From: Candidatus Helarchaeota archaeon | GTDB lineage: Archaea > Asgardarchaeota > Lokiarchaeia > Helarchaeales > RDOG01 | Length of the DNA stretch: 64,000 nt | Direction: 5' to 3' | Assembly: GCA_019058315.1 (NCBI GenBank) | Contig: JAHPZH010000002.1 | Location: 973,910-1,037,909 of the forward strand | Part shown: positions 3,215 through 61,900 of the stretch, piece after piece | How the letters are laid out: every line of letters starts with the position of its first letter | Position numbering within the stretch: position 1 is the first letter of the stretch | Program-made: the position numbers and the translations under genes | Notes under the pieces: generated by a model | What the model saw: the letters and a program-made list of their open reading frames with translations, nothing else | Database searches by the model: none | What the model was told of the DNA's origin: nothing

Positions 3215-3449
3215 AAATTTGAAGTTAGAAAATTACAATTTAATTATTTCTTGCTTAAATAAATTAGAAATTTCTGTTGAAATATCAATAAATTAGGTTT
3301 CTATTTAAAACTTTTTTACACCATCAAGAAACTTATAAATCTCTAAATTATATTAATTTATTAAAATCCCCGGAATACTATAAAAACCAGTTTACGATGA
3401 AGAATTTCAACATTAAATTGTTTTTTTATATTTAAAGGAGTGGTTTTAT

Positions 3450-28900: not shown

Positions 28901-31900
28901 TTGTTAACCCAAATTCGGAGTTTATTTGTTTTTCCATCTTTTATATATTCATTAAAAGTAATGTCATTTACATGCCCCTCAAATAATACAGTATCTTGCA
29001 AACCGTGAAATTCCTTCCACATGTCAATTATTTTTACATGCATTAATGGTTCTTCCATATTAGGAGGTAGATTATAATTAACATTAAGTATGCTTAACTC
29101 CTCTAGAACTCCATAAGTCTGCGGGATAAATCTAAATTCTATAGATCTTCCGGGAGCAACTCTTTTCTTAAAGTCTATATCTATAATAAGACTATTCAGA
29201 TAGAATTCTTGCCTTATTAGATTAAGAAGTACCCAAATTTCATCAGATTGTAGGTGCATTAAGATATGTGGATCATCATCTATATAACCACTGAAGCCCG
29301 TTAACCAAAACAAACTAGACCAATCAAAAACAAAATGAGCCCCAATAGGAATACCAGCACCGTCAATATCTGGTATAAAGCTTACCAATCTTCCATCAAC
29401 CCAAATTCCACCTTTTAACCAAGCACCTCCAAACCCAAACTCGGGTGGACATCCACCAGATATAATCATGCTGTTAATCTTACCACCAGGCATTATGGGA
29501 ACTTCTACAGATTCATGTCCAATAGTTTCAGTATATGGAAATTCGCCACAGTAATAATAATACCATATATTCATGATTCCATGATGAATAGAGACAGTCC
29601 ATGAGAATGATGGCTCATATGCAGCTTGAGGACCGAATATTTGGTAGTGGTATGAATGACCATTTACATATAATCCCGTATAAGATTCTTTTTTACCATC
29701 TTGATCTCTATCAGGAGCATAAAGGTCGAATGGTGTAAATTCTACAAAACTTCCTTGTTCTGAGAATATGGGATAATAATATTCTTTCATTTCATTTATA
29801 TTTTGATAGAAAATCTCTCCTGGAATATCTAATACAGTATCAATTCCAAACATATCTGGTGATGTCTCTCGTGGTGTACCTTTGGGATGAGAAATATGAG
29901 TAAATGGACGATTACCAGTAAAAATAAATGATCCATAACTTTCGAGATATATTTCTAATAATGAAGCCTGAGCAAAGAAATGAATCCTGTCCTCATAACT
30001 ACCAGATAGAGAGCTCTGATAATCATTATAACGACGTGCATATATGTCTGGATAAAGATCCGAAACTTGTATTATTATTCCATTATATTCAGAAGTCATC
30101 GGTGTAAATGGTCTTCCTCCAATTCCACCCAGAGACCAAACACAAGTAAATATGTCTCTATACATATAGTCTGCAGTTACATTATATCCTCCAATGATAT
30201 GGATTTGATTTGTCATTAATAATGCTGTTGATGTATAGATAGCATGTTCCTTCATAATCATTTCAGAAGCATAATAGGAACTATCGGAATACCATTGATA
30301 AGTAGGATCATAAGCAATTAGTTTAAACCTGCCAGAAGGTAAATTTGTAATATAAATTGGAGAGGTCAAACCATTCCTTGGCGAAAGGCTTTCAATGCAA
30401 AACCTAAACCAATTTCCTGGCTGATGCTCTCCTTCTGCATCGGTCCATGGTATTTCTGATATTTTAATTAAAAAAGTATGTATTTCTCTTTCCAAAAGTA
30501 ACGTATATGTAGCCGTACAAGTTAAATCGGTTGCAATATTGAGTGTGTTATATTCTATTTCTTCCCCATCAACCCATAAAGATACAGGATTTTTCTTGGT
30601 TTGGATAGTAAATGTATACTCATCTGTTGAAGTGATTAGTAGATTGGTGAAGTAATATTTGTTATAGTTTATTTTTAATTCATCAGCAGCATAATGATAG
30701 CCGGATATAGTGACATAATCCATTTCTGAACGAATTATTGGATTATACCATCCATTCATCATTTCAGTTTGTGCATATCGTCCATTTTGGCTTAAGTGGT
30801 TTAAATTAAAATTATAACTAAAAGGTTCATCACTTATATCATCACCGTCTATGTCTCCAAATTTATGGGGTTCAGTGGGTGATACACGCCAATCAATAAC
30901 ATAATTATTTCTCGCATCCGTTCTATAATCTATTCTAATAATTACTGCTTTTGACGGTGCTTTTTTAAATTCTATGATTCCTAATGACTCAAATACATCA
31001 TATGATGAGGGATCTTGTTTTAAATCATCGAAATAGACACCATCTTTATCATTATCCCATGTTAATATTGGAGTATATTTAAGTTGGAATACAGCATTAA
31101 TTCCATCATTACCATATATTCGCTCTTTTTCAATTCTTTCAGGATTAAAAGCTATTGGTCTTTCTAAAAATTTATTAAAATAGAATGTAGTAAGCCCGAA
31201 GCTAGTTAAAGGTTCACTATAAGGTGCGTATTCACGGTATATTAAGTCGAAATATCCATCCACACCTGTCGATTGATATGAATTTAAATATATATTTCCG
31301 TAATAATATGGTTTCTCTACACTATTCTCTTTACACATCTGATCCACATAATATGGCAAAAATACATTGACAAAATTCCATGATTCTATATCTGTTTCCA
31401 ATGGAATTTCCCAATCAATGATTGAAGACTCAAAACTCTCCGCACTTGTGAACCAAATGGTTCCGAGCAATGTTGAAGCATCAAAACCATATAGATCGAC
31501 ACCTAAAGCGAGGGGTGGGGTTTTTATTCGTTCTATATAAATTAAATACTCACCATCAAGGAGATTCCAATGATCACCATCATGGAATTGAGAATTTGAA
31601 AAGCCATTTAATTCAGGATCGTATGCTATCATTATAGTTTCATTGGGTGGACCATACAATTCAATTATATTTGTACTTCCTATTAAAAGTTCAGAACTTG
31701 GAATGTCAATTGAACACCAATACCATTGATTATTTAAAACTTTGACTTTGAACTCATAATTATTTACTCTACCTTGAATTCTAGGTGATGTAGAATAGAT
31801 TAAAGCTTTAAGAGAAATAGAATTATATTTTAAATCCTCTGGATTATTACCAATTATTATTGACTTTTGCAATTTCTCGTCAGTTATCAACTCCAAATAG

Positions 31901-34900
31901 AAATCAAACTCCCCATTAATTTCCGTAGCTCCTGTTTCCCATGCTATATATGAATAAAATCGTTCCTTATCTTTATAAATTATCCCCATATAAAATGGAT
32001 CAAAATTTTGCGATGTTATACCTATACTGTTCAATCTAGCTTTTCTAAAATTGATTATAAAAATTGTCCCATCAGAATAAATATTTAAAAATTCAATTTC
32101 TGCATCTCCATTTTCATTAATTGTCACTAAATAATCTTGATTATAATTGAGTTCAACACCATCAATCATAACATTATCAATTTCGGAACTCCACTCCAAT
32201 ACTGGATAAGATGCAAAAATATATTTACTAGTTCCCATTTGATATGTTATAGATGTACTTTGGGAATTAAATCCATAAAATAAATCGGTTGGATTTATCT
32301 CTAGAGTGTATTCTTTCCCTATATTTTCCTCAACAGTCATAGGATAGGATATTCCATTAATTGTTAAGATAATGTCTTCAACAGTGCTATTGATATTAAA
32401 GTGTAAATATGCCTTTTCTACGACTTCATGATTTAATATTTCAATATTTGACGCAATTTCTTTTGTTGCGATACCATTTGTGTAATATCTATAATTACTA
32501 TAAAGATTAAAACCTTCAATAGGATGGAATAATTGTATAATTCCCCTACCATCTATATCATAAACGACTTCAAAGTCTACATCTTCAATTAGTCTGTCAT
32601 AATCTGAATAAAGATTGTCGATTTCATCATCCCAATCTACAATTGGATATTCTAATAACTCATATTCTCGATCAATTTCAAGAGTTTCAATATCGAGTTC
32701 ATTATTATATACCCTATAATGGAAGGTTAAATCATGACCACCCGATCCCAAATTATTTACCCAACTTTCAGCATCTTGAGTTAATATTATTTGAAGTTCT
32801 TCGTTTATTTCATTAATTTGTACTGTATAATCAGTTCCATATTCTAATATCTGTTCATTAGATGATCCTTCATTATCAATTACTGTGTCAATTATAGGGT
32901 CCCATACCACAGCAGGAGAATAGATTAAATCATATATGAAAACTCCAACGATAAAAGTCTGGGTTTCTATACGATCCTCGGATACCCTATAAGTAGCTTG
33001 AATTTCACCATCGAAGTAATTAAGTAGTTTAATTACAGCTCTTGAGTCAGGAAGGATATAAATTTCAAAGTCGATTCCTAATTGAAGCGGATTTCCATCA
33101 AGTAATACCGAATCAATACTATCATCCCATGGCAATATAGGGTATTGATCTAATGCAATTTCCCAGCTTGAGGGATCATAACCTAAATTTTCATCCTTTA
33201 TACTTAAAGTATTATTTATTATGTAATAGCTTTTATACTGGCTTTCTTCATATCCATAAAAGTAGTTATATTTCACCTTTTCTGCAAAGAGTCTCGTATC
33301 TTCAATATTTTCGATACCAGATGATGTTAATTCTATTTCAGCTAATTTTATTCCTGTCAAGAAATTAGGAGGTATTGCATCCTCTATCTCTTCTATTTCT
33401 TCTCCTGAAATAAGGAATACCCCAGTTTTATTTACAATAACCAGATCAATTCTTTTAAATCCAACTGTAGGTAGTGGGGTCTCTATCGTTCCATAATTAA
33501 ATTCTGTAGTATGGATGTAGCGTCTATCACTATTTGGGAACTCAATATAACCGTTATTTATTAATAATTGAGTAGCAGTTACTGTTTCGACTTCTAGTTC
33601 ATCATCTCGAGTCGGATCATCAACGATAGATCCTACCCTTGCCCAGTCTGAAAATTCACCTGGCCATTCTGAGCTCTCGGTAGAATCTGCAGGGTCTTTT
33701 ATGATTTCTGTTGGTTTCCAGAACCATTTTAATGATGGATTGTCTTCAATAAATAATGGGGAGATTGGATATGTTACCATAGAATCTATTATTCCAGAAT
33801 ATAAACCTTCAATAACTTCAGAATCACTTTGGATAAATGATCCTGTAGTCTCAAAATCTTCAATTAATTTATGTAATGGAATTTTTTGATTAAAATTCAC
33901 TGTTGGAAATTTAACAGTCGTATCATAGTTCAAGCAATTTCCAAACCAGAGCCTTAAGACATAACTAAAACTATCACCCTTTTGCACTATGGGATGGTCT
34001 TTACAGAATAAAATTTTGGTATTGTTAGCGTTTTCAAGCGTTCCCAAATGAGTTATTGAGATATCATCATAAGATGTCTTATATTCTCCTTCGATTTTAA
34101 CTTGTCCCAAATAATTACAATAATTCTGGAACCAAGTTGGGTCTAGACTGAATAATGTTGAATCATATGTATTTCCATTGATAGTTGCTGTCCATGAATC
34201 TTCTTCGATATTTAAGTCAATTTCTAAGTTATATGGTAAAGTTGCAGAACTTTCTATGAATACTTGCCTCTCTTCTATTATTCCATCTTTTGCTATCACG
34301 AATTTATAATATATATCATAACCACATGCTCCATCTGCTACTGCCTTAATATAAAATTTGAAGTAGTTATTTTCATCAAAATAATAAGGATAAAAATTGG
34401 CTAATTCGTATAATTCGCCCGCGGGAGGAACCCACGCACTACCCGTATCTAACTCTTCTATGACGAGTTTCAAATTGTAACCTTTATGCCAACTCCTTTT
34501 AGTAATTAGATTTTGCTCACCCGTTAATATTAATTTTTCATCCTCAAATGAAGGAGTACCTCCCCCGTCAATATAATCCCAATCCGATAACTCGTCTACA
34601 TTTTCGATATTAGTAAAGAACTCATAGAATTCTTTTGTGCCCTGAATTAAATCAAGACTGTCAATAGCTCCAGATAATAATTGAGCTCCCATTCCAAGAC
34701 CATTATCATTAAATATAGCTACCCAATCACTACCCTCTTGATATGTATCAAATAACATTGAAGAAGTTAAGTTGAATGGAATTGTCTTGACATCGTAACC
34801 AGTTTCTTCAGAATTCCATGTCATTGTTCTTTTAAGTTCAGTCATACCCCCAGAATAAAACATTGTATTATCTTCGATATCCCAATTCTTACCACTTCCT

Positions 34901-37900
34901 TTTGATTCGGTTATGACATAATCCTCACCCTCGGATATTATTTGAGTATCTGGAATTATATCATAAGAATTGATAGGATATGAGACGATTTCTGACATTG
35001 TATACTCCATATTATCTGAATTTTTACCAAGATCGCTTGCATATTCCGGCATACCATGTGTATATATTCTATGGAGTATCTCACCATTTAGATCAGTTAT
35101 TGTTACATTATCAATATACATTATCAATTTTCCATAATCATGTTCCAAAGCTACCTCAAAACAGGATGTTGTTTTTGTTTCGAAATTAGATAAGTCGATC
35201 CTCCGATGATACCATTTATTCCCAAAAAGATCAGTCTGGGGTGAAGCACTTATTCCATTCTGATCAACTGCATTTCCAGAACTCATCCATGTAGCATCAG
35301 TGAAATATATATCTACTGCTGCTTGACATGGGGTAAATAGGTAATCGGGAATTATTTTTATATCATATTCCAGAAAATTATCTGATTGTATCGTAATTGT
35401 TTGTTGGCTAATATCTGGGTACCAATAAGAATCTACACTTGGATCTAGGGCTTGGGCGGTAAATTTAATATGGTCGGGTCCATTATTGGAACTCTCAAAA
35501 TTCACTTCTCCGTATAAAATTTTATATATAAAAGCAAGTCCCATTGACTCACCTTGAGAAAATTCCACACTGTCGGATTGAACTTCTACAATTTTTGATA
35601 AGTCAGATTCCTCAAATGGCGCATTTGATACAATCCAAGATCCAGATTTATAGCGATAATCCACTTGGCTATTAAATAGGAATGGGGTATCGACACCAAA
35701 ACTTTTTAACAAGATTTCCCATTGAATCCAGCTTTTTATAGTTCCTTGAAGGATAATGAATTTATCTTGCGAGTACCATGAACTCCACTCAATATCTCCT
35801 AGTTCAGCAATACTGTCTGCGGTCTTATATCTAAACTCGATTTCTGTATTAGGTGTATTTTGATCTATTTTGGTAATAGCTGCAAAATCAATTTTTTCAC
35901 CCAGATATATCGGTTCCGTAGTTATGTTACCAGTTGGATAATACGCATCTATATGAACCGGATATAGACATATCCATGAATAATAGTTTGAAGTATAACT
36001 TTTTTTCGGCACCCGTCCATCTGAATAAAATCTAAAAGCTACCCTCTTCTCACCGCTATAACTGGAAACGTCTATATTGGCATAACCATAATCGAACTCA
36101 ATATAATTAGTCCAGTAGTTATGTATTTGCTCGACTGGTATCTCTGTGGTTATGTCTAGGTTCGTCCCAGGATCGTAAATGTATAATTCTAAATATAAAT
36201 CAATGTATCCCGTCCCCCTCGATGTGTAATTCATACTCCAGAGAAAATTTATTGAACCCGCACCAGTCAGATCTACGTCTTGGTATATAATATGCTCGAA
36301 AGTTCCAAGTTTAGCTTCGTTTTTAGAACTTAACACTTCATGAAAATTAACCGCATTATTGGTATGAATTATTTCACCTATATGACTTCCACCACTGCCG
36401 CTAGTTCTTGTCATTTGGGCTTTTTCACAAATCCAATAATCGGTATCCCACTCCCACTCCGTTAATGGATCGTCTGGATTTAAATCGTAAATTCCCTCAT
36501 TACCAGCATGATATAATCTTGTATCTGTAGAAAAATCGTAATCGGGTAAAATATCATCATTTGTATATTCTTTAAGTTGCCAATGCTCATCTATTACATC
36601 TCCGGTTGGATAATACACATCTATATTAACTGGATTCAAATATATATATGCAAAAAAGCCCCTTGTGTTGAGCATATCATCTGTTACCCACCCACTCGTA
36701 TAAAATCTAAAAGTGACTCTTTTTGTCCCTTCATAATTAGAAATATCTACATTGAGATACCCTTGATCAACTTGATTTGCAGTCCAGTGCTTATGTATTT
36801 GTTCTACTGGTGATATTGTATTTATATCATCTTCGGGCTCATGGATATATAGTTCTAAATTTAAATCACACCATGTTGATCCATCAACTTCATATTTCAT
36901 ACCCCAGAGAAAACTTATTGTGTCTGCACCCGTTAAATCTACGTCTTGGTATATAATATGTTCAAAAGTTGAACTTTTGCTACTACCACCCTTATTAGTG
37001 GTGTGATCCGAAAATTCTACTGCGTTATTAGCATGGGTTATTTCTCCTACATGATGTCCCCCACTACCACTAGTTCTTGTCATTTGAGCTTTTTCACAAA
37101 TCCAATTCGAATACCAATCCCCCGTAAAATCATCAAGGATGACATATTCTAAATTACTATCATGTAATAAGTGGGTATTGGTAGAAAAATCATAGTCGGG
37201 TAGTACCGTATCATAAGGATATTTTTCATACTCTAAATCTTCCTCGATAATTTCTATTGTATCAACTATTGTATGATCTATTGTATAATCGGTTAAATCT
37301 AAAACTTGTCTACTATCATAATAATCAGATTGTCTAAACATTACTAGACCTTTAGCCATTTTATTATTTACCCATCTATATTTCGCAGAAACCTTAGAAT
37401 TAAGTGGTGCGGGAGCTGAAAGTGTGACAATGCTTGTATCTAGATTAACACTATAACCCGTCTGTTCTACATCCCCAGATCCGGTATCAATATAAATATG
37501 ATCATTACTACCCCATGCTATTGGCAAATGAGATAATTGATATGTATCTGTCAGACCATCCGCACTTTCATCTAAAACTTCGTATTCATTAATAATTGCA
37601 AATGGTTCTTGTGAAAACCACCAGTATTGGGAATATCCATTCTTGACGGGAGAGAAGAATGTGCTTTGGCTCGAAAATGAACTGTTAAGTTGTATAAAAT
37701 CTATATATAATCTTATTTTTTCGGTCGTAGCTTTTGCAGCTATTAATTTTATTTTTAAAGTGTTTGATCCATCTATATAATCTTGTAAGTTTTCAATTTC
37801 AAATGGTTCGGTCAAGGAAAGTATATTAGAATCACCTTGTTCTATTATATCCCAATTTGTGGTAAGGGGATTATATATAGCAATCCATGTTTGCGGTATA

Positions 37901-43900: not shown

Positions 43901-46900
43901 AATTTACCTTCTGCGAGATTTACATTAATGTTTAAAGGTGGAGGAAAATTCTCATATCTATTTCTATATGTTACCTCTCTCACAAATTGAGCACCATCCC
44001 ATTCTTCTACCCAAACTTCTAGATATAACGGAAAATCTTCATCAAAAATATATTTCAAGTTAATTGTCTCAGTAGTAACATATCCACTTTCGGGACTCAA
44101 TATTGTTAGGAATGGAGATTTAATATCTACAAAAAGGGTTATTTCATCAGAAGATTCTCTTCCAGCCTCATCTATAGCCTCCACACGAATAATATAGGTA
44201 TTCTCTTTATCAAAATCTAGTTCGGTATAATATAGTTGAGTTGTTGGATTATAATCTATTGTGAGATCATTTATTAATTTCCCATTTTTAAATATATTAA
44301 ATTCTGATACATCACTTTGCCACTTTAATGTTACTATTTCACCACAATAACTTTGGGAAATAGGTGAAATAATTTGAACTACAGGATCGGTCAAATCAAT
44401 TTCTATATCTATGGTTTCGCTATTATAATTACCAGCTATATCCCAGACAGTCGCTCTAATTTGCCAATTACCCGCAATCGGAACAGAAATAGTGTAATTT
44501 AATTTAAATTGTTCAGATACAGTCTCCCAAGGATCATTATCATATCTTTTTTCAATCAATACATTTTCTATACCACTTGGACAAGTATCATCATCATGGA
44601 CTATCCAATATAATTCAATTGAATCATCTGGTATGTGTTCATTTTGTGTCGGTGCTAATATTATACATGACGGATCTGTTTTATCTACTCCAATAAAGAT
44701 ATTCTTTCTTGCAATACGCCCAGATTCGTCCTCGGTATAAAGTTGTATATTGTGAAACCCCTCATCTAAGTTCAACAAATATGATCTTGTATTTTTTGGA
44801 AGAAATTCTTCTATAGCTACATCAAAATTTGTAATATTCCAATATTGAATTTCTACTTCACTTGAAGCTGTCCATTCCAATAAAATTTGACCATTAGAAG
44901 TATAATAGGAAGGTGGTATTGGATTTGTAATTTCCACAATCGGATCTTGTAAATTGATTTTAAAATTCCCTGTTACTTCTGCCTCATTTCCCGCATAATC
45001 GACTGCTACGATTTTTACTGTATGTTCTAAAATAGCTGGATCTGGAATATAAATGGTGATAACTTCATCATATTGATATTCTTCAAACGGTGTTTCGAAT
45101 GGATATGCTTCAACATATATAGGAGCTTCATCATCAATATAGATCAGGTGATAATCTACGAATACGTTATCTTTGCTTGTGAAAACGAATTGTAATATCT
45201 CGTGTCGGTGATATATTGTTGGATCTGGAAAAAGTATGTTAACTTCGGGAGGTGTGGTATCGATTACGTTCATTATACCTTCCACTGAATAAGGAAGGAA
45301 AAATTCATTTCCTTCAAAGACAGCACGGATTATGTATTCACCTGGAAAGAATGTAATAAATAGCTCCAATTCTGCTATTCCAAAATCATTAGTATAAGCA
45401 GTACCTAAAGATATGAACTCTCCTAATACATCATCATAATATTCGAAAATTATTTCGAGTCCTGCACCTACACTATTACCATAATAATCTTGAACACTAA
45501 CACTTAATATCTCTGTTTCATAAAAACTTACATCTTTAGATGGATCTGATATTATAACAGGTATTCTTTTGGAATAATAGACTTCTAGATATGGATTATT
45601 CATATAAGCATCAGATGAACTAAAACTCCACTCAGATTTATCACCTTTAAATAAGAATGTAGCATATTCTTCTCCAGTTTTCGCCAAGTCAGTTAAAAGA
45701 GTAGAAAATTCAAGCGATTTAAATGAATACCATTCATTAAAAGACACATCTTGGATTTCATCAATGAAGGAATCACTTAAATCAGATATAACGATACTTT
45801 TATCAAGATGCATCTTGAAAGACCATAAGCCCACTCTGGCAAACCAATACCTTATTCGAACTAACTTATTCATCACATACTTCCCAAAATCTGTATTTAT
45901 TATATTTGAACACTTAATTTTACAAAGTTTATTCAAATCTTGTTTATACCAAATACTTAATGTTTCCCAAGAACAAGTATCCCAATTGAATATTTGTAGT
46001 TCAAAATGCCCCATATCATCATTATATTCTGATGTTAGGTTGAAGTCAGTTTCTATTTCTATATAATTACAAGTCTCTTTTATATCATAGTCATAGGTAA
46101 CACTTATATAAGATGTGTTATCCACCGGATTATATTGGGATTCAATAACTTCATATATCCCATCTGAATGATCGGTAACTCTATAATCGTTTTCTAAAAT
46201 GTTACCATAAGTAACAATCTCACCCGATGTTACATAAGAATAAATATCATCAAATGTAATAGTATCATTTATAATATCACTGTTCAGAAAATAATACATT
46301 GAGACTTTATCATTATAATTATCAATTTTTGTTTCAGTATTAAAAATATTAAATGAAGTATCTTCATATACTATTTCTATGTCATTTTCCAGAGGCAATG
46401 GGAATTTAATGAAAGAATATTTGAAAATATTCTTATAATTTACTATCAAATTCAAATAATCCAAATTATAATTATTCGGTTGTAAATTATCATAATATTT
46501 ATTCTTAATACGAATGATAACTTGCCCATTGCTGCTTGCAAATTCATGAATATACATTATATTGCTTATGGTATAATTATACCATTTTTCACAGCCTCTA
46601 ATTGTTTTACCGAGCTCGAACCAGTCATTTTGTGCCCAATTCCAGATACTAATTTGTAAATCTGGGAACCATAAAAACCAGTTATTATCATCTGAAATGT
46701 AAGTCTCTAAACCCAAGTTCATAATGTGTGATGCCTCTATACCAGTATCAAAATAAAATAAGGCTTCTAAATTATCAGAGCTATCTTCAGTTAATATTAA
46801 TGAGTTATCATCTCTTTCATGAGTGTCTATCAAGTCTCCGCTACTATCGCCTACTTGCTGATAGAAGTTATTGGCTTTTAACGCGACAAAATTTCCCTCA

Positions 46901-49900
46901 GCATCTGGGAATAAAGCTGTATTGTCTATATAATTCACTTGTAAAGTATCTTTATATCCATAAAAAGTCGCAGGATTTTGATTGGAGACATATGTATCAT
47001 TACAGATCGGTTCTCTTGTAGATAATGCGGCTAGAATTTTAACTTCTTCTTGGGCATCCAGATTAAAATTACCAAAAGTAATTGATGCTCGTTCTCCTAA
47101 ATCTGTGAAATGATGAAATTTGTCAATTTCATAGTTTAATCTCACAATAAGTTCACCATTTGCTGATGTAATTGTGCCTCCATCGTTACTTAGAATATAT
47201 ATGTCATTTTCATAACCCTCAAGATTCCATTGGATTCGATATTCCCTTTTATAAATTGATATAAAATTAATTTCATATTTAGTAGACCCGCTTCCCATGA
47301 TATATTTGATTTTTAACAGACTCCCATCTGTTAAGGTTTGTATTGAAGTTATATTTATATAATTACTATCTTGGTTGATTTGGTAATTAATGGTATCTAC
47401 ATCCATATCACACCAACCCCATATCCAATTTTTATATTGAACTTGAAAATTTTCTAATTCCTTCAAACTTGTTCCAGTTATATCAAAAATCTTAACTCCA
47501 TTTGGTGTAAAGTGATATAGAGATGTCGGATTTTTAACAATAAAATCATTATTTGAAATTGGAGTATATTCATAGCTTACCCAATAACCATCGACATTAA
47601 TATATTCATAATTGGAAAAAATTAGCTGTTTATACCTATATATTTCGGGATCATAATATAACTCCCAATATTCTCCCATTTCCAAAAGATTATAATTTGA
47701 TTCTGTCTTAAAAGAGGTAAATACATCTCCAGCTGCATACGATGATAGTGAACCCGCTGCATAAACATTATTTTCGAAATTATAATCATATTCAGGAGTG
47801 GCTATAGGAACCATTTCTTCATATTTATTATTATATATCTTAATTAATTCAGAATCCAAATACTCATAAGTAATGTCATAAAAACCTATAGGTGGATCGG
47901 TTAAGATTAATTTCTTTTCTAACTCATTTATGATATAATCATTAAAAGGTGTACCATCTATTAGCAGGTTTTTGATATTAATTGGGATCTTTAATAATAT
48001 AATCTCATCATTAACTATCGATCCCGTCTCCACAGTCTCTTTTCTTAATTTAATAACATCTTTAATTCGAATATTGAATTTAAAATCCCCATCTTCAATT
48101 CCATTCTTTATAAATAAATAATTATAACCTTTTTCTAACCATACCAATATTTCTTTTTCTATATATTCATTATTACCAAAATTTTCGTTGATAATCTCGT
48201 ATCCATTAAAATTCACAACAGCGCATCCCTTCATTTTAAATACTAAGGTTGCTGTGGATTCTACTGGACTCCATATCCCAGTCCAACCATATGCCATTAC
48301 ATTTATAGGTTTTACCAAATAACTTACAAAATAATTATCATCTCCCCAGGGAATACTTTGACCACCAATAGTTATTAGCCCTGTTTCATAGTCAAGATGA
48401 TAATAACCTCTACCAAGACTATATAATTCATCTAAAGTTGCTACTTGAGTTAAGTATATATGTTCGTCAGTAACACCATCTTCATCAGTATCGCTATAAT
48501 CATTATAATACACATAATATATCTCATAAATAGGTCTACATGAAAGAACGAATTTTTGATTAGTTTTTGCTAATCCACGAAAACTATCTCTTTTAATTGC
48601 TTGTGTTGGGTAGATATTTTTCATATAATCATTAATATCGATCCAATTACTAGATGAAGTGTAATAATTCCATTTCACTTCCAAGTTTTCAACTTTATAT
48701 TCTCCAGCATTATCTATATATACATATTCACCATCCCAAGATTCATTAATCGGAATTAAATAAGTCTGGTATAACTCTTCTGCTATTTCTTCAATTTCTA
48801 TTGCTGTTTCTTTTATTGGATCATGATAAAAAGTAGCTAATGCAGTTAATGAAGTAATTTCATTATTTGTTGTTAATTGATTTTCTATCAAAGAATTAAA
48901 TATTTTTAATTTCCACTGAACCATTGGGTCAGATGTCTCGATACGGACCATTATATAGTGATATCCCTCATTTAAAAATATATGATCTCCTTGTTGTATC
49001 GATCTTGAATCTAAATATATCTCAAAGTCGGAAATTCCTCTATAATATTCAGGGATAAGTGCGATCCATGCATTACTATCCATATATATGACTGTATAAT
49101 AGTATTTGATTACGTCTGCTTCAGCAATTACAGTATCTACAATATAAAATTCTGAAAAATTCGGGATTACTTGGTTGTTTGTAAATGTCATTGAATCAAG
49201 GGTGTTTCCTTTCTCCTTTATTATACGATAATGAGTTAAGAAACACATGAATTCAGAATCTCGTTCATTTAATTCTTCTAATTTAAATTTAATTTTTTCT
49301 AATTTTTTAGATGAACTAATTTGTATCGGAGATTGGATTTTTGCAAATTGATTAAGGGGGACTAAGTTTGTTGCTAAATTAGGATGAGTACTAAATGAAA
49401 ATTGATCCTCTGTTCCATCATCATAAACTAATATTATACTAAAACGTCCATGGTCAAAAATACTTGAATCAGAATCATAAAGCATAATTTCTGATTGTAA
49501 TATATAACTGTTTTCAGGTTCTAATTCTTCATCAACAATGATTTCTATTTCATTTTTTTCTAGATCATCACTTTCTGCTATATTCAAGATTAAAGTGCCA
49601 TCATCCATCAAACTATAAAAAGAATTTACATTGGTATTGATGTTAGTATTATCGAGTGAAGTAATATAATATTGTTCATCTAATTCAATCCCGTATACAG
49701 AGATAAAATCAAATAATGAGTAACCTTGATCATGATTATTGAATCCTATTCCCAAAAGTTCGAAATCATGTTCATCTAAATTTGGAGGTGGTGTAGGTCC
49801 ATAAATTTGTGTTACATAGTATTCATAAATTAATTTATGTAAATTAATACTTTTTAATTCCCAATCTATGGGTATACCGTAATTGGAATTATCAATAGTT

Positions 49901-52900
49901 ATAGTAGCAGATACGCCAGTCTCCGTATCTCTTACATATAACTCGATACTCAGATCAGTCCCCGCTGAGTCTGAGTATGAATATGTTATATTATAGTTAT
50001 CCACCCCAATATACGGTTCTCCACCAAATGTTATTAAATGATTTTCTAAATCCACCGTATATTCATTATCAATAGGATTCTTTTTTACTCTTTTAAGAAC
50101 TTTCCCTGTATTTAACTCTGTAATTGAAATGATATTTTGTATTTCATCCCAAGTATCATATTTTGTCCCAATAAACCATGAATAATCGTATACATAATTA
50201 ATATCAAATAACATATCATTTCTATCAATAAGTTCAAAATCTTCTGAAGTTATCCCTCCTTTTTTCCACGCCCAAGTCATGAAGGGGGATTGTGTAATAT
50301 TAACTGGCTTAAAGTTATATGTCCAGTTTCTCACAACATGATTTAAACCATCTAATATTGATTGAGAAATATTGTAGGATATAGATTGATAAAAAGCATC
50401 AAAAGAAGTAGAAAAACAATCATCTCCCTCTTCCCAATTAATACCTTCTTCTCCAAACATTAAGGTTTCATTTAATGTAAAATATGTGTCAGAGATTATT
50501 GTATCTAATGAGTCTTCAAAAGGAGAAAGCCAAGTAGAAATTGTCCCATCAGCTTGAATATCAGTTAAAAACAGTTCTGTATAAGGTGGCGTTCGCCCAT
50601 TGATATGACTTTCACTAATAGGACCCACTCTTATAGTAGTTGAAGATTCCGAACCTATATTCATTCCATAACTCAATGCTTGATATTTTGGTGAGTTAAT
50701 CCACCAAGTGGAACGGAGTGGAATAGTACTTAGACTATAGGGATGATAACCCCACATTGATATGCCCCATAGATTTTCATCATCGCCTAAAATCATCCAT
50801 TCAGGATTATGAGACATTAACCAACCCATGTCACTATATTCAAATGTATTTTCAATATCCAAATTTCCATAAGGAAGTAGATCATCTGAATAAACATGGG
50901 CAGAAGAATTTAATGAAAAAATTGCTCTTACTAATTCGCTTTCATCTATGTCATATGTTTTGACTTTTATATCAACAAAACCTGAATCGTATATGGTGAA
51001 ATAACAATCTGCATGTTTTGAGTTATCTTGAGTGGATGTTTCAACAAGAATTTCAACCCAATCTAATGTCTGGTCAATAAGCTCTATATTGTTTACTTTA
51101 TCTAAATATCCTTCAGTAGTCGCAATCATAAAACTACTATTTAGATTATTTCCAAAATATGTTATATTCATAATCCCCGGTCTAGATGTCGGAATTTGAA
51201 AAGTATCAAGACTATTATCAAATAAATATCCAATTGTATATTGTGGTGTTTCATAATAATCATCAGTTCCAACAAATTCTGCTTTAATTTTATATACAAA
51301 TGGGTAAGAACCACCAAATTCTAAGTTGCATAAGTAATCATATTCTGCCCAGCCGTCATCATTTGTTAAAGCTACCATATTATCTACTAATGGAACATCA
51401 TCAGCATAATTAAGTATTGAGAATTTGATATTTCTATTCGCCACAGGGATGCTATAATCTGATTGTAATAAACGAGCTTGTAGTTTTATAGTCTCAAGAG
51501 TATTACCATATTTATCCTTTACATTAATTGCCAAATTGTCATTTTTAGTTGCAGTCTTAATAATATAAACGAAATTTGGTTTGTAATAATCATTCCCTAA
51601 AAATTCTGCTTTAATTGAAAATGTCAAATCAGGTGGTAGGAAATCAAGATAAGTTTCAATAAAATTAATCCCATTTGAATCCAAATTACTCTCACCTATC
51701 TCAATCCAATTTATAGGTTGACCATTTGTATCAAAATCGATAGAGTAATGATATTTTACACATCCTTCTGTAATAGGACTGTTAAATGGAGTCACCAATT
51801 GTGAGCCCATTATCACCAAGTCGTAAAATTGGATTGGTCTCCCTTTATTTGATTGTATATAGATATTATTATCATTGAATATAGCATCTTGTTTTGTTAT
51901 TACAATGTTATATATTGGAGATATTCCGTGATTGCCTTTCCCAACATCACTTATTTGTGCACCCTTTAATCTTGGATTATCATAAATCCCACTCTTAGCC
52001 CTAAGTGTTACCTCTCCATCTGTGAATAAATAATTTTTCAATTTTGCAGCTGGTACATTGAATGGAATTGTATAGCTACCATCTGAATTTTCTATTATTG
52101 CATTTGTCCCATCTGATTTTTTTAATGGTGTATATTTATATGACGAATCTAAAGTGCCGTATTCAAAATTCATAAATCCTTCAGCCCAACCATCTGGTTT
52201 TATTTCTGGAGTTACATCTGATAAAGCTAAATAAACATAGATAGCATACTCGCCTGCTACCTCTTCTAAATACCAGTCACCTGTATAAAGTAAATCATCT
52301 ATTGAATCTTTTTGTGTCCAAATAAAAGTTGAAGGACCACTTCCCAACCCTAAAATTGGTTCTGTTGACATTTCAAAAATGGGATTTAATCCATGCAATT
52401 TTATTTTCATCCCGATAATTTCATCATATATGTCTCTTATGATTATAGTATCAGGATTAACTAGTAATTGATTTATAATCACAGAATAACTATCAGTTCT
52501 ATATATTATATCATCATCATGCCATAGATATACATAACCATCAACTACACTGTGTTCAGGATAGACTACAGGTGGAGGATTAATTGTGGGTATCACAAGA
52601 AGTTCTGGATCATAGGCTGTGACTTGTAATTGGATTTCTTCTCCATATTCGGCGACTCCATCATTGTCTGCTTCACCAATATCAGTTACAGTTATATCAT
52701 TAACTATTGGAGATGTTGTATCTAATTCAATATACAACACAAATAATTCTTTTTCTTCAACTTGAGACAACCAACGTTGTTTATCATAAGGATTTAATGT
52801 ATCTACCTCGATTCGATAAACTGTATCACCTACAGGAGCGTTTAAATCAAATTCAAAGTTACGATCAATTATATCATACTTCCAATCTTCGATTAATTCT

Positions 52901-55900
52901 TTTGGATCTGTATTATGCTGCCACCAATTTGTGTGTGTGTCATGGAACAACCATTCACTTGTACTCCAGTCCCAGTAATATACATTAATTTTAATAGCTT
53001 CTACATGCCGATCCCACTGATAGATACCTCCAAATAAATCTTCTTGATAACTACTATGATGATGTGTTTCAATAGATTCCTCAGCATCATCAGGAATTTC
53101 ATCTGAATTAAAGCCATAGTCATCATTTGTTGATACTTGAAAGATAATTTTTTTCGAACTTGTAGAGATAGTATCTCCCTGTTCATAATCTCCTTTATCA
53201 TCATTTTCATTTAATTTTATATAAGCAGTTTTCCAAGCTTCTCCAGAATAATCTAACATTACAGCACTAATATTTGCTTCTGGTGGAAAATCCTCAGTAT
53301 ATTGAACTACAAGTTGTGGTCTCCTATTTGGGTTAGGGTTATTCGAAGTACCAATACTTTTTTGTTTCCAATGGAAGGGTTGGTGAAATTCTCCACGAAT
53401 GGGTGGAGTATCTGTACCTGTATATAACGGATCAAATAAGTCCTCGAATTCATCATTATTAGACCAAGGGATATTCCAACCGTTTTCTCGTAGGGAATCT
53501 ATTTGATACCAATCCAATAAAGCTTTATTGCTTCCTGTATTTGCGTGTAATATCATTTGAAAATATTCTTCATTAAACTTATCACGCATTTTATAATCAG
53601 GATCATAATTTTTAGTTTCCCCAGAAGCTAAACCAGCTTCCATATTGAACCAAAATTTATATCTACCTGTATCAGTCATAACAGTAGATGTTATCCTATC
53701 ATCCCAATCCCCTGAATCTACATGCCATTGACTACCTTCCCACCGATCACCTTTCGGGTAACCAAAACCTGGAATTGGATATGGACACCAAATAAAATGA
53801 TTTGGATAATCTCCTTGATCATTTCCTCCTCCATCGCTATCTGCCCCGTAAGAGAAGAAATTATTCATCCAATCCATTAATTGATATTCACCACCTGGAT
53901 TCAATGTAGGTTCATAATAATAATAAGGACCACCGGGAAGGGAACTGCTAAGATCCCATTCTGTTATTGAAAAAGAAAATTCTAGAAACTGAGAACCCAA
54001 ATTCGGACCGAATTCGGGGTTGTAAGTTCTATAACTTACAGTGGAGAGCTGATCCATTATTACATAAGGAGGCGAAGTTAAAAATAATATTTTAGCATAG
54101 CCCTCTCCTAAATATTCGATATCATAATCGACTCCATATTCAAGGTAACCTGTACCAGGGATATATACGGAATCGACAAGAGGATCCCATGGAATAACAA
54201 ACTGATGAGTGAGAGTATAATCCTCAAAGTCGAACCAAAATTCATCTATCCTATTTAATATCGGATCAATTTCTTCAAATCGAAATTTGATTTTATTTAA
54301 TTCCTTTATTATAAAGCCTAATGGCTCTGTTTCGGGTAAAAGATATTCATAAAGATTAAAATAATCCATAATGGTTAAGTCAATTTCTATTGGATTGGAT
54401 GTCCACTTGATACCTAGCTCATCTGTATATTCTTCAATAGTTAAACTCGTGATTGCAAAATCTGATTGAAATATTTTCCCTTGAAAAAAGGTATCAGGAT
54501 TAATTTCAATTGTTTCTGAACTTATTATTTCAAACCAATCGAATTCTTCAGTCCCTGTAAGATATACCCCAGTCCTTTCTAATTCAAAATATATGGGCTC
54601 ATGTTGGTAACTAACTGAGATCTCAGAGCCTTCTTTTGGTGGATATTTGAAAAATACAGTTTCACTATCTATTATTGAATATTCTGCTTCTAATATGTCT
54701 CCTCCTAAGACTATATATTTGATATTTACTAGATCATCCCCTGATGGTAAATATGGGTCCACTCCTTGGAATAAATTGATAATTTCGCTGTTGTCTCCTG
54801 TCCGAGTATACTGAAATCCACCAGTGGAACTAGGACTATCAGTATAAATAAATTCATAGGTTTGTATTGCTTGTGGATCTGGTGGATCGAGAAGAGCATT
54901 TAAAGTTACAGTGACTTCTTCGATTGAATCTAAATCAAGATCAGGTTTTATGGTTAATATAAAGCTATTGACTAACCCATCACCTTCAAAATGTTCTTTC
55001 ATTTTAACATTGTATAATGTATCAATTCTTTTACCTAATTGATAAGCATTTTCGGAACCACTTGCAATGAAATATTGAGTTATATCTTCGGGTTCTAAAG
55101 TCTCTGAGGCGTCAGTATTGAGAGAAAAACTCCAAGTTCCATCAGTTAAATCTGATTTATATATTAATTCGCGATCAACTTGAGCTGGTCTGTCATCAAA
55201 ATTAGACCACTCAGGGATAATTAAATGCCCTTCGACACCATAATTATCCCTATCATGTGGATTCTCCACCCAACCTCCTGGTAAACCCGGGCCTGGATTT
55301 GAGACATAATACCAATCAGAAAAACCATCAATTCCGTTATCTATTGGCAAATCACGAACCCACACATCCAAATATGAAAGTGGTGAAGGTTGCTGGTTTT
55401 GATCCCAGATTATATCAGTTCTTTCCCAATTTTCAATCTGTTGTCCCGAATATACAAAAATATTCATAGGGTAATGAGTTTGGGGGTCAATTATATGTGC
55501 AAAATCTCCATAATATCCAGGAAATATATGAAAAGGGATATTAGTTCCCATAGCACACCAATCGCCTATTAACATTTCGGGATCTGCAAAATCACCCCAA
55601 TAAGCATCACTTTGCATTATTCTAGGGTCATAAACATTTACTAAATTATTAAGTAGATAATGTGTTCCACCCATATAATTAAAACTCGTTCTTGAAAGCG
55701 GAGTACCTAAATCATCATGGTTATCAAATAGACTGTTTCCTGAATCGGGTAACGGGGCAAGTGGATAACCAACTGGGTAAAGTTGCGAACCTCTATTATT
55801 TCGCCTATAAGGAGGATACCAACACCAATCATATAATTTAATTGGCCACAAAACTATCCACTTGACCGGAATTCCCCATGGGCCTGGTAACCATACTTCA

Positions 55901-58900
55901 ATTGGGATATATGCCCAATCCCAATCCCAGTTAGAATATGTACTCCAAAATGTCCAAGACCAATCTTCAACAAGTTCGTCCTTGAAGATTTTCTCATTAG
56001 GATCGATTTTTATTGATTGACCTTTCTGTAATGTTAGATTATAGAAAATTATATTGAATTTGACATTATTTAATCCAGGATTTATATTAATTTTTCGTGA
56101 AATATTATTAGAGACATCGTTAAAATCTATATTCAAAAAGAATGTATCATTTTTATAAAAATTTACAGAAGAAAGAGAATCAATTTCTAAAAATGAATCT
56201 GTAATATATTGTGTTTTATACCATTCAGAAATACCAAAACCTAAATAGAGAAAGAAATGGTTATGGGGATCATCGGAATATGTGCAATTAGTAAAATCGG
56301 TATAATTCCCAACTTCTTCGTAATGAATCCAGATTTGATTAATTTTATTTGCCTTAGTACCTATCTTTTTTGCAATATAATCATATATATTTAATGTATT
56401 AGTCTCATTTAGATTAAAATTTATTTGTTCAGTCTCTAAGACTGTACCGTTTTCTAATGTGACATTATTAAAATAAAGTTCTGCTGAAACACAAGGACAA
56501 TGATCAGGTTGGTATGTTAGGATACAATTTTCATTTATATCTATACTGACATTTGATTTCCAATCGAACCAGTCAAATATTTCAGTTTGATTAAATTTTA
56601 TTCCATAGGAAGTGCTATTGAAAAAATTAGGAGGATGACTACTATTAAGTACCCAAGATCCATCAGAAAAGTCAGAATCATATAATGGTTTATAAGGAGA
56701 TGGATACCCTACTTCAATATTATCAATATTGGGCACGTAACCTGACCACCTAATTTGATATTCCTTAGTTTCATCAGCTGTTGAAAGAAAATCCACTGTA
56801 ATTTTAAAATCTCCGAATCCAAACCTCCAATCTGTTGATAATATACCTGAATTTGTATAATCTTTTCTTCTAATTATTAATGGATCTTGTAATCCATCCA
56901 CAGATGTACTATTAGTTATAGTGACTAAAGTACCATCTATTTCAATATAAGTTTCAAATTCTGTTTTTATCGACTCTTCTAATTGCCAACCTCCGTTATT
57001 AACATATAAATCCCAATGACTTTTATTTAATATCAGTTCTGTATTGTTAAAAATATAATATCCAGTTGAATTAATTATAAAGGTTCCACTGGGATGCTTA
57101 ATAAAGAAATCATCAATCGAATTTTCGTGAAAATGATATGGAAGCCAAAAGTCGCCATAATTTATGAATACATTACTTGAATAATAGTATTTTGAATAAG
57201 TTCCATCAGTAGTGTTCATAACTTTTTCCCAATTAGGTCCTCTCTCGATTAGTTTTATGTTCGGTGCACCTGCTGCATAAGATGTAAACTGATAGGTAAG
57301 TCCAGAACCTGGTACTTCTACTATTACATCCTCTATACCATCACCATCTTTATCTGTGGATTCTACATTTAATCCATAATCACCCTTTTCGAATAATGAA
57401 TATAATCCACTTAAACCTCCTTTCCATAAATCATACTCATTTGCTGTGATAGAAGTTGATAGAGGAATTCCTGTTATCATACTAAATAAAATCTTAGAGG
57501 TTTGTTGGCATTCGTCATTAAAATTAATACTATATTTAGTATTTTCTGTCGGATACATATGAACAAAACTAACTAATCCTTTACCCCATTGCCCAGTGAA
57601 TGGATCCGAAAAATCTTCTGATTTAGCCCATTCAATCTTTAGATCTTGCTCAGAAAATTGGGTTGTATCAATTGGATATTCGGATATCCAGAAAGACTGT
57701 GTACTAGTAATTCCCTCAAATATTGTACAATCAGTTCTAAATAAAACTTGATTATCAACTGTAAGTTGTTTATTATAGACATCCATCTCAGCAATATGAT
57801 TTTTTGCATAGTTGAAGTCATTAAAATTATCTATCGAATGTATTTTTATATTTAGAAAGTCAAAAAATATTTGATCATTATACATAACATCTTCATCCAA
57901 CTTGAAAATTTTTACTTTTATTTCACCGTCTTCAGATATGATTGGGTATATATTATCATTTAATACAGAATGAATCTCGAATAATTCCTCTTCATCTTCT
58001 ATATATATCGAACTATAACTGTTCCAATTATTCTCATCATAGTCGTAAAATGCAATAACTAGATCACAATATCCAACACCAGTAAATTGATTAGTGACTC
58101 CTCCATCCATTGTACTTGGATTATCAACAAGGATATCTTGATCATAACGATTAGATGATGATGGGATATTGAATGACCATTCAATATAGTCCCTAGGAGT
58201 CACAGGGTATTGTGGAATTTTTGATATTATTGGTAGCCAAAGTACCCCTCCTGATGGTATTTCATATCCCCAAAATGGTGGATCTGGGTCGTTTATTTCA
58301 AATTCAGCGTCTCGCCCATTAATAGTGGTAGAAAAAACAGTGTCTTTATGGACGTATTTTGATGAAGTGCCACGAATTCGAATATAACCAGTTGAAAGTT
58401 CAGCGTACTTATAAGCTTCAATTTCTAGATCTATATGATAATTCCTTAATTCTGGAAGTGGAATCCCATTAAATATAAAAGTACTTTCAAGATATCCACC
58501 TTCTGGAGTTAATGTATAATAATTATTATCTTTCATTTCAAGAGGTGTAATATCATTAAATTTTTCTAAAAATATATTTGAAATTGTAATATTTCCAGCA
58601 TTTTTAATTCCAAATACCAAAGAGAAATCATCAGATATAAAACCAGAAGTTGGAACTGTAAATTCAATTTCTTTTGTACTAATCATTTCAGAATCATCAG
58701 TATTCCAAGTAGTCCATCCTGCAGTCTCAGGCCTATCTTCGTAAAGGAGTCCATTTTCATTTGGATAATCTGTAACAATAAAATAGAAATATGAATTAGC
58801 ATAATTTTCTAAAATAGAATAATCAAACTTCAGCTTATATGAAACTCCTTTATCCAATATTAAATTTATAGGATCACTCACTAAATAATTGTAATAATAA

Positions 58901-61900
58901 TCAGGACCTTCGAAATCATGCTTTATATTATTACGGGCCTTAATTTTATTACTTTCTTCATAACATTCATATTTTGGTGTTGTGGATTCATAATAATTTG
59001 ATTCAATTTTTAATTTATCAATTAAAATTTCAAGTGTTAAACCATTTGTTAATTTTGTAAATAGGATAATTTTAACACGAATTATTCCATTCTTTATAAA
59101 TGCTAGATTTATCTCTTCTGATAAGTCATTTGGGACAGTAGTGATATCCTTTGGAATAATTGTTGTCAAGTTAGTCCAAGAATTGAATTTCCAATTGTAC
59201 ACCATTATATAAAATGAAGTTTGATCTTCCGCATCACGGTTTGTTCCAATTTTATATTCTAGAGAAGTATCAATTATATCTTTATCTAATTTTTCTAAAT
59301 TAAATTCAAAACCAACTTGGGACATGTAAGCAGTTTCATCTCTTAATTTCAAATAATCCGTATCTAATTTATTAGAAATTTTATAATATTCGCTATCTGA
59401 ATTGTCAAGATCATTAAGATCATTATTAGGATCATCTTGACCAAATAAGATTAAAGATGATTCAGGAATTTTGTCTATATACAATTGATCCCAACCAACT
59501 CTATTAATATTAAATATTGAATTATAATTTTCTGTTAAACTCAATATTTCTTCTACTATTTTACTTGGTCCTACAGGGGTTGGGATATACGATTCTAATT
59601 GATACTGTTTAAGATAGTTTTGGTAAGATTGATAAAATATTTCACTGTATGGAACAACTTTATTTTTATAAAATACAAATTCAAGTGGTCTTGTATAAAC
59701 ACTCACGTATTGATTACCTAATATATTAACCCAAGTCTTAAAAGTTGTATGTTTCTGTCGATCATCATTAATATTTAAAAACGTGTATGGTAGAATACCA
59801 TTTAAATTTATAAAAATACCTGAATGAGATGTGAAAATCTCTTGTAGTTCCAAATAATTGACTATGCGAGTATTTAAATAACCTTCTAAATATAAATTTT
59901 CTAATAACATGTAGGCAGTCGTTAGAGCTACATCTAGTGAAGTTCCCATAAATGGTAAATCTGGATCCGCAAATATGTAAATTGGAACTAATTTATTATC
60001 AGAGGGATCGTATATAATCGAAGAATAAGTTTTTGCTGCGGGAAATTCTTTATACTTTTCTATTATGACATTATTTTGTGTTAGATTCAACTCATTTGTA
60101 ATTACTCCTATTATATAAATTTCTTTAAATTCTGTCTCAACTTTTTTCTGAGGGTTCATAGAAATGAAATGATCTACATGGATTTTTGCTTGACCCAAGA
60201 TGAATTGTTCAACATTATTTTCATTTAATCCAGCCCATATTATTAAGTCGCTCGTTCTGTATACTGCTCTAATTGAACTACCTAAACTTAGAAGGTTTGG
60301 CTCAATAAAGATGACTTTTTGTTCAAATAGATCGATATCGTAATGAACATTTAATTCTAATATGGTCGACACTCCGTCTTTTTCCATAATAATAGAATCC
60401 CCTTCAGTAGTATCCCATTCATAAGGTATCTGGGCTAGTTGTAGATCAGTCTCTAAATTATAATTGTAAGTTAGTATTTCATTTTGTGTTAATAATTGCC
60501 CCTCTACTATTTGTTTTCCTTCTTCATTATCAAAAAAGTAGGAGATAAATTCATCTACATTATTTTCAAAATTACCATCTGTATCTTTGGCAATTTTTAT
60601 ACTATCTGGTATATTATTCTGATTATAATCTGAAATAATGCATCCTTTTGTTACAGTAGCAAATGCAATCGTACCTGATAAATCCTCCACATTTTCCTCT
60701 AATAACGACAAATAAAGTATATCCACATCTTTCACGAACACTGTAGAGTCTTCATAGTGGATTTCAACATATTGCTGATTAACGCCAGCTTCATTATCAT
60801 TAATTGCTGGGATCATTATAAACGAGTCTCTGGGGACTCTGTCAAATATAATTTCTATTGTATCTCCTTTTTCAACAAAAATATCAAATTTTGCCAAACC
60901 TTGTTCATCTCTTGATATATAACCATTATAATGGTCAGTGTTATTATATATCATACTTGAAAAGTCGAATTCGCCGTATCCTATCTCGTCAGTTCTTAAA
61001 TTTCTAATAGAAAATCCCATTTTCGCTGTCGAGGAATAATATGTCCCATTTTGAACTAAGAAAACTCCTCTTATTCCAGCATAATCTCCACTCTCGTCTA
61101 CCTGGGTTCTAACAACCACGTTATGTCTAGATAGGTCATACCAAGTCGATACATAACCATATGCTTCGCTTAAGGGGTGAATGGGATTACTATCACTATC
61201 TTTATATGCACCAAATTCTAAGCCCCAGTTCTTTATTTCATCGAAAGGCCAAGTTTCCATGATTTCGAACTCAGGTATCAATGATATTAGTCCTGAAATC
61301 CCTAAAGTCCTCAGTGCAGTATTTCTGAGAGAAGTTTCAAGAGAGGAATCCAATTCTATTTCATCCATTACAAAATCATTAAAGATAGCATCAGATATCC
61401 ATCGATTTTCATATATTGTGGAAGCATAATCAAGATAATTTAGATATTCTACTTCTATAGGTATTTCTGGTAAAATTGGTTCTTCAATAGTTCCCAAATC
61501 AATCAAATCCATTAAACCTGAGACGAATTGAACAAATACTTCAAAAATATCTCTATCATAATCAGTAAAAATTGGATTTCCTGGATCTTGCAAGCCAAAT
61601 TTTAAAAGATAGTTACTCAGGTCAGAAGATCCTAATAATAGTAATTGTAAGATTGATATCCCTAGATTATAATCTAGACCATTTCGAACCTCTTGTAATA
61701 ATCTGTAGTTCATTTGCCTCAATATTTCAGCAAAAACTTTTAGAAATTGTTTTTTAGTTAAATTTGGATCTTTCAAAATATCTTCTACTGGCTTAAGAAC
61801 TTCTAAAATTAATGGATCTTGGGTAGATTTTGTGGTGGGGACAGAGGATGGAACTTCTCTGCCTTGACTCATCATCATTATAGCTCCTTTCATAAATTCA

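Follow-up and report, generated by a model that had tools for sequence, protein, structure and literature searches.

A continuous domain and its collinear three-piece relative within a giant orphan protein of a Helarchaeota archaeon

Domain insertion is found in about 20% of multidomain proteins and can be nested up to six levels deep, and both its generic (A1-B-A2) and its nested (A1-B1-C-B2-A2) form have been catalogued in ECOD/AlphaFold (PMC13114784, which cites Aroul-Selvam et al. 2004 as an earlier treatment of domain insertion). In Si3 of the β′ subunit (rpoC2) of cyanobacterial RNA polymerase, hybrid motifs are inserted recursively at up to six levels, whereas E. coli has three linear domains (PMC13114784). 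Giant, largely unannotatable genes, in turn, are known across Asgard archaea (PMC8813620). Here we analyze a stretch of 64,000 nucleotides (hereafter the window) from a Candidatus Helarchaeota archaeon (GenBank assembly GCA_019058315.1, contig JAHPZH010000002.1, positions 973,910 to 1,037,909 of the forward strand), which holds a large part of a giant gene. Within this gene a domain of about 150 amino acids (aa) is present as a continuous copy and as a second copy whose three collinear pieces are separated by two in-frame inserts.

The gene occupies the following part of the window:

25951-63999, minus strand: in-window part of the giant frame (12,682 aa), which continues upstream

The frame is free of stop codons and extends 1,757 aa upstream past the window end (63999), to a total of 14,439 aa in a genome of 5.79 Mb in 12 contigs with a G+C content of about 30%. 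Because of its length in such AT-rich DNA, a frame of this kind cannot be due to chance. All aa numbers below start at the first in-window codon (window position 63999). An independent assembly, a 132-kb Logan contig of depth 18 from the likely source run, is identical to window positions 53900-56750, and the split architecture described below is therefore not an assembly artefact. Among the sequencing runs listed for this stretch, only that likely source DNA run contains it, and no RNA run does.

A sequence-only reading of this DNA had described one continuous copy of the domain and another carrying two in-frame inserts. All peptides quoted in that reading were confirmed at their positions on the minus strand, in the single stop-free frame. 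The host domain and its inserts are arranged as follows:

56221-56688, minus strand: copy 1, in which the host domain is continuous (aa 2438-2593; 9 N-x-S/T sequons)
55114-55167, minus strand: N-terminal host piece of copy 2 (aa 2945-2962; best whole-protein match to the N-terminal 11-mer of copy 1; positions 1-19 of the host profile)
54619-55113, minus strand: insert 1 (aa 2963-3127, about 165 aa; either nested or made of two modules in tandem)
54268-54618, minus strand: host core of copy 2 (aa 3128-3244; found by BLASTP and the host profile)
53992-54267, minus strand: insert 2, one YP-x-x-W-D β-module (aa 3245-3336; assigned by jackhmmer, hidden Markov model (HMM), shuffles, and alignments)
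53956-53991, minus strand: C-terminal host piece of copy 2 (aa 3337-3348; best whole-protein match to the C-terminal 11-mer of copy 1)

Copy 2 spans aa 2945-3348 and consists of three collinear host pieces with inserts of about 165 aa and about 92 aa between them. For the core, BLASTP aligned aa 2454-2563 of copy 1 with aa 3132-3244 (113 aa) at 25% identity, with an expectation value (E) of 2e-9 in the pairwise comparison and of 1.6e-7 when the search was made against the whole giant protein. The ends of the domain were located by short ungapped matches. Among about 12,670 positions of the protein, the N-terminal 11-mer of copy 1 found its top match at aa 2946 (score 43; runner-up 25), and the C-terminal 11-mer its whole-protein top match at aa 3338 (score 35; runner-up 28). 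Loose regular expressions written for the two ends of the host domain match only copy 1 and copy 2. An alignment of the two copies with the inserts taken out had been set beforehand as the comparison on which the earlier claim would stand or fall. When aa 2963-3129 and 3247-3330 were removed from copy 2, BLASTP aligned residues 2-156 of copy 1 with residues 2-153 of the shortened copy 2 from end to end, at an E of 8e-15 that is better than that of the core alone, and the global score lay 12.6 standard deviations above 1000 shuffles. The host profile likewise retrieves copy 2 as three collinear pieces, covering profile positions 1-19, 17-135, and 140-166; the last of these corresponds to aa 3322-3348 and overlaps the last residues assigned to insert 2. 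MAFFT did not align the two copies across the inserts. As read from these alignments, collinear homology of copy 2 to copy 1 in three pieces is demonstrated, and the original description of the two copies holds. The identity between the two host copies is 25-27%, and a search of the genome with the host profile returned no copy beyond these two.

Both inserts appear to sit in exposed loops, because copy 1 has short, polar, sequon-bearing segments at both sites. At the first site, insert 1 lies between a conserved L-N-S/T and a conserved H-x-P, where copy 1 has just a few polar residues including the sequon NSS. At the second site, insert 2 follows a conserved E-E-V/I, and copy 1 carries an 18-aa polar stretch with the two sequons NYT and NCT. 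Sequons of the N-x-S/T type are concentrated in copy 1, which makes up 1.2% of the in-window protein but has 9 of its 64; none occurs in copy 2.

We infer from the arrangement of homologous segments that the three host pieces of copy 2 fold into one domain. An alternative account denies that there is one split domain: the terminal pieces would be linkers or edge strands of neighboring domains, and copy 2 would be a linear row of beads, i.e., a duplicated multi-unit segment to which further beads were added. This account gains from the fact that the argument for a single fold is one of sequence logic only and from the low confidence of the structure models; AlphaFold2 run on the single sequence of copy 2 gave a predicted local distance difference test score (pLDDT) of 33. 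We nevertheless consider it improbable, since the terminal pieces are 12-18 aa long, hydrophobic-alternating, and strand-like, too short to fold alone, and better conserved than most of the core, as expected for strands that close a β-sandwich. A language-model search gave leads for the host domain to the jelly rolls CBM27, CBM30, and CBM_4_9 (scores 0.85-0.88), and a Pfam scan of the domain found no match, including among the carbohydrate-binding-module families.

According to the sequence-only reading, both inserts are units of one recurrent module, and for insert 2 this stands. The relevant relatives are the following:

32014-33228, minus strand: tandem array of four YP-x-x-W-D modules, paralogues of insert 2 (aa 10258-10662)
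27334-27582, minus strand: distant module-family member (aa 12140-12222; HMM score 10.0, z 5.4, 0 of 300 shuffles)
60235-60477, minus strand: distant module-family member (aa 1175-1255; HMM score 14.3, z 6.1, 0 of 300 shuffles)

The module family has a length of about 85 aa and is marked by the motifs Y-x-L, YP-x-x-x-W-D, I-D-x-V, D-G, D-Y-x-V, and Y-R-x-Y. Jackhmmer links insert 2 and the array modules from either side, and insert 2 scores 54 bits against the profile made from the array-seeded jackhmmer alignment, an alignment that already includes insert 2. Compared pairwise with array members, it reaches shuffle p values down to about 1e-5, and identity among the module copies is 21-29%. 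By these measures insert 2 is a clear member of the recurrent module family. An AlphaFold2 model of insert 2 built with five paralogues (pLDDT 50) is all-β with seven strands. When the flanks of other module copies were spliced, no significant collinear matches were obtained. A proposed split host resembling carbohydrate-binding modules around the tandem array (31238-33830 and 49690-50300; a cassette of about 730 aa) gave collinear matches that were not significant (E 0.35 and 3.7).

The existence of this family bears on the direction of change. In principle, the ancestral domain could have carried the loop inserts and copy 1 could have lost them by precise in-frame deletions that left short glycosylated loops behind. 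The 18-aa loop of copy 1 at the site of insert 2 could be such a remnant, and no outgroup was found that would polarize the change. We rate this course of events as unlikely and below gain by copy 2, because the insert 2 module also occurs by itself in a tandem array, which makes gain by copying simple, and because loss needs two separate, exact deletions of whole domains. Accordingly, we favor the view that the inserts were gained by copy 2 rather than lost from copy 1.

For insert 1, the claim of a shared module held only in part, as no parse of this insert scores against the YP-x-x-W-D family profile; a profile-profile comparison of insert-1-type modules with that family was negative as well. 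Two contiguous modules are of use for its internal parse:

46093-46284, minus strand: module that aligns without interruption to the final 62 aa of insert 1 (aa 5906-5969; Smith-Waterman score 67)
37366-37566, minus strand: contiguous module resembling the C-terminal half of insert 1 (aa 8812-8878; Smith-Waterman scores 46-50, z 6.4-7.1)

The sequence-only reading had placed a further module inside insert 1, which would make it a module within a module. The end of insert 1 (aa 3070-3131) aligns with aa 5906-5969 with a Smith-Waterman score of 67 (z 7.7, p 3e-5; BLAST E 0.045 against the whole protein), and this alignment crosses the proposed border between inner and outer module without a break. 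The last 39 residues of insert 1 match the C-terminal half of aa 8812-8878 (z 6.4). Against the same module, the proposed outer halves spliced together scored 50, little more than the 46 of the C-terminal half alone. The best non-self match of the proposed inner part is the module at aa 12140-12222 (window 27334-27582), the resemblance on which the nesting had been based; with an E of 0.56 against the whole protein and a pairwise shuffle p of 0.004, it is not significant. Only the last ~60 aa of insert 1 have relatives in the protein, at borderline significance. Insert 1 is thus composed, in part at least, of a recurrent type of module. Since the module match runs across the proposed border, a tandem parse fits at least as well as a nested one, and the weak evidence leans toward two tandem modules rather than one within another. 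The proposed nesting is accordingly unproven by these comparisons, and of the branched architecture that had been suggested, only the local branch at copy 2 is retained.

From the in-frame insertion into loops, the sequence-only reading had concluded that some mechanism mobilizes the module. The module might be an actively mobilized in-frame cassette, moved by dedicated recombination or retro-homing, or the inserts might be removed as an intein or a bulge-helix-bulge intron. Two observations speak for something of this kind. The same module type recurs at dispersed sites, and insert 1 shows weak complementarity between its two ends: its first ~15 nt and last ~15 nt can pair over 7+4 bp with a duplex free energy of -23.5 kcal/mol. 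Nevertheless, a comparison of the inserts with the rest of the 38-kb gene detected no nucleotide similarity beyond chance matches of 13-21 nt, and inspection of the insert borders found no direct or inverted repeats that stand out from the short matches of the background. A near-repeat of 13 nt, found where each insert ends on its C-terminal side, was discarded, being no better than seven other chance repeats within the same 1.5 kb. Inteins are marked by Hint blocks, by a Cys, Ser, or Thr that opens both the intein and the C-extein, and by a terminal His-Asn. The scan contained no Hint or intein family and the intein end residues are absent from the insert ends, so that the intein reading was rejected. 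At archaeal bulge-helix-bulge introns, the junctions pair so that a 4-bp helix lies between two 3-nt bulges. The junction duplexes here are without such geometry, the inserts are stop-free, in frame, and multiples of three in length, and insert 2 is conserved as protein with array modules that are plainly translated; a tRNA-type intron was rejected on these grounds. Taken with a module identity of only 21-29%, these results make mobilization or splicing of the inserts a very improbable explanation, and a dedicated mobilizing mechanism for the module is not supported. The copies are old, with an identity of only 25-27% between the hosts and 21-29% among the modules.

The explanation that we consider likely is that the host domain of about 150 aa is an ancient in-gene duplicate, one copy of which carries loop-inserted β-domains that arose by recombination. 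The domain would have been duplicated inside the gene long ago, and two surface loops of one copy would then have come to hold extra small β-domains, giving the order A1-B-A2-C-A3. The C insert would be one unit of the family that is also arrayed in tandem 7,000 residues downstream, and the B insert one or two units of a looser module type. We infer that rare illegitimate or intragenic recombination copied module DNA into loop-coding DNA, for which a long and internally repetitive gene may offer a setting, and that selection retained only in-frame insertions in tolerant loops. Dedicated mobilizing machinery would not be required. Four points weigh against this explanation. No orthologue or outgroup was found in the genomes and databases searched, so that gain and loss of the inserts are not polarized. 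The models of copy 2 (pLDDT 33) and of insert 2 (pLDDT 50) are of low confidence, so that a single fold of the copy 2 host pieces is unproven. For most of insert 1, no significantly related sequence emerged. Finally, among random window pairs set at this spacing, only 1.5% paired as well as or better than the ends of insert 1; we regard this complementarity as probably due to chance.

On the explanation by duplication and loop insertion, the giant protein would be locally branched and not purely beads on a string. A much wider claim can be built on the same locus, namely that the giant grows mainly by repeated drops of a phage-tail-fiber-like module into surface loops, producing a tree-like branched surface protein of which the copy pair is the one place where the process is still readable, with loop decoration by modules (copy 2) and dense N-glycosylation (copy 1, with its 9 sequons) as alternative diversifiers of one set of exposed loops. 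We hold this to be a slim prospect.

Searches for relatives of the host domain and the modules revealed nothing detectably related outside this protein. There was no match in 40 genomes of relatives, among 1.84 billion protein representatives queried with 1000 aa, or in JGI metagenome contigs, and the module profile had no match among PDB sequences or among the longer proteins of a collection of 5.8 billion clusters. Host and module profiles run against 300 Asgard genomes each gave chance-level matches only. Two genomes of the same class hold frames of 11,803 aa (L008, G251:C35) and 12,880 aa (L009, G272:C48); module matches in these frames (E ~0.008 per genome) were lost on re-scoring. In a tblastn search of phage genomes with insert 1, the only matches had an E of 0.5 and lay on integrase genes. 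Pfam and PHROGs scans of the separate pieces were empty or gave E > 0.1, and for the whole giant protein, Pfam found almost nothing and PHROGs nothing usable.

The sequence-only reading had called the inserts baseplate-like. In fold searches with the insert 2 model (pLDDT 50), the best Foldseek E was 0.38 in PDB and 0.12 in BFVD, and template modeling scores in the ESM Atlas were at most 0.54; phage tail-fiber and T4 gp10 proteins recur among these weak rows. A language-model feature search with both inserts pointed to the T7 tail-fiber N-terminal domain, DUF2460, DUF4183, and YomF_N, all with scores below 0.9. The corresponding HMMs PF03906 (Phage_T7_tail), PF09343 (DUF2460), and PF13799 (DUF4183) match nothing in the genome even at an E of 10. 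We have dropped the label as a classification and keep it as a lead, and a weak one.

The product of the giant gene is an acidic, β-rich protein made of lineage-specific domains and presumably located at the cell surface. Three strongly hydrophobic 19-mers are located near the start of the frame, at full-frame positions 446, 883, and 908, and because of their location the chain beyond roughly residue 930 is probably confined to a single side of the membrane. The youngest internal duplication of the protein consists of two adjoining units of about 220 aa (window 35896-37260, aa 8914-9368) that share 53-60% identity; the remaining repeats are at most ~35% identical. Between copy 1 and copy 2 lies a Trp-rich stretch (window 55819-55968, aa 2678-2727) with 12 Trp in 50 aa, including W-x-W and D-W-D-W runs. 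Contigs C3 and C1 of the same genome carry two further giant frames without stops (13,746 aa and 6,782 aa), and both the host domain and the module family are absent from them. Directly past the 3′ end of the giant gene, on the opposite strand, there are convergent open reading frames at 19117-20724, 20725-23922 (plus strand), and 23996-25894. The one at 20725-23922 encodes a 1,065-aa subtilase (Peptidase_S8, E 3.5e-50), which could be a processing partner of the surface giant; its two neighbors belong to no family.

For the giant protein itself, the consequence is that at least part of an orphan Asgard protein of more than 14,000 aa would consist of discontinuous, loop-decorated domains, a reading for which the continuous copy provides an internal control. 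Anyone parsing, folding, or expressing pieces of such a giant should note that cutting where 'repeats' seem to begin and end would break up the host domain. Domain insertion and nesting are already common and well catalogued; what marks out the present case is that host and insert families are orphans and that the evidence comes from a continuous paralogue. The case is a clean but ordinary domain insertion and reveals no new molecular mechanism.

Seen beside the described systems, the locus shares with the small all-β modules of phage tail-fiber N-terminal and baseplate proteins (PF03906, PF09343, PF13799; T4 gp10) the size and the all-β character of the insert 2 model (pLDDT 50), but it differs from them in that no HMM matched at an E of 10 and all fold matches had E > 0.1. 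As in the Asgard giants (PMC8813620), the chain exceeds 10,000 aa and is mostly without recognizable domains; it showed no homology to other giants, the matches in the 11,803- and 12,880-aa frames being at chance level. With generic domain insertion it has in common that a host is interrupted by a smaller, independently occurring domain and that one host receives more than one insert. The differences are that host and inserts are here orphans, for whose families no relatives are detectable beyond this protein, and that the case is made by a continuous paralogue in the same chain rather than by a structure. The Si3 domain resembles it in that one type of small β-domain occurs both in linear series and inserted in loops, with a continuous form available for comparison. 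In Si3, however, the nesting was confirmed by cryo-electron microscopy and AlphaFold and compared between species, whereas here the second level of nesting is unproven and the comparison is made within a single protein.

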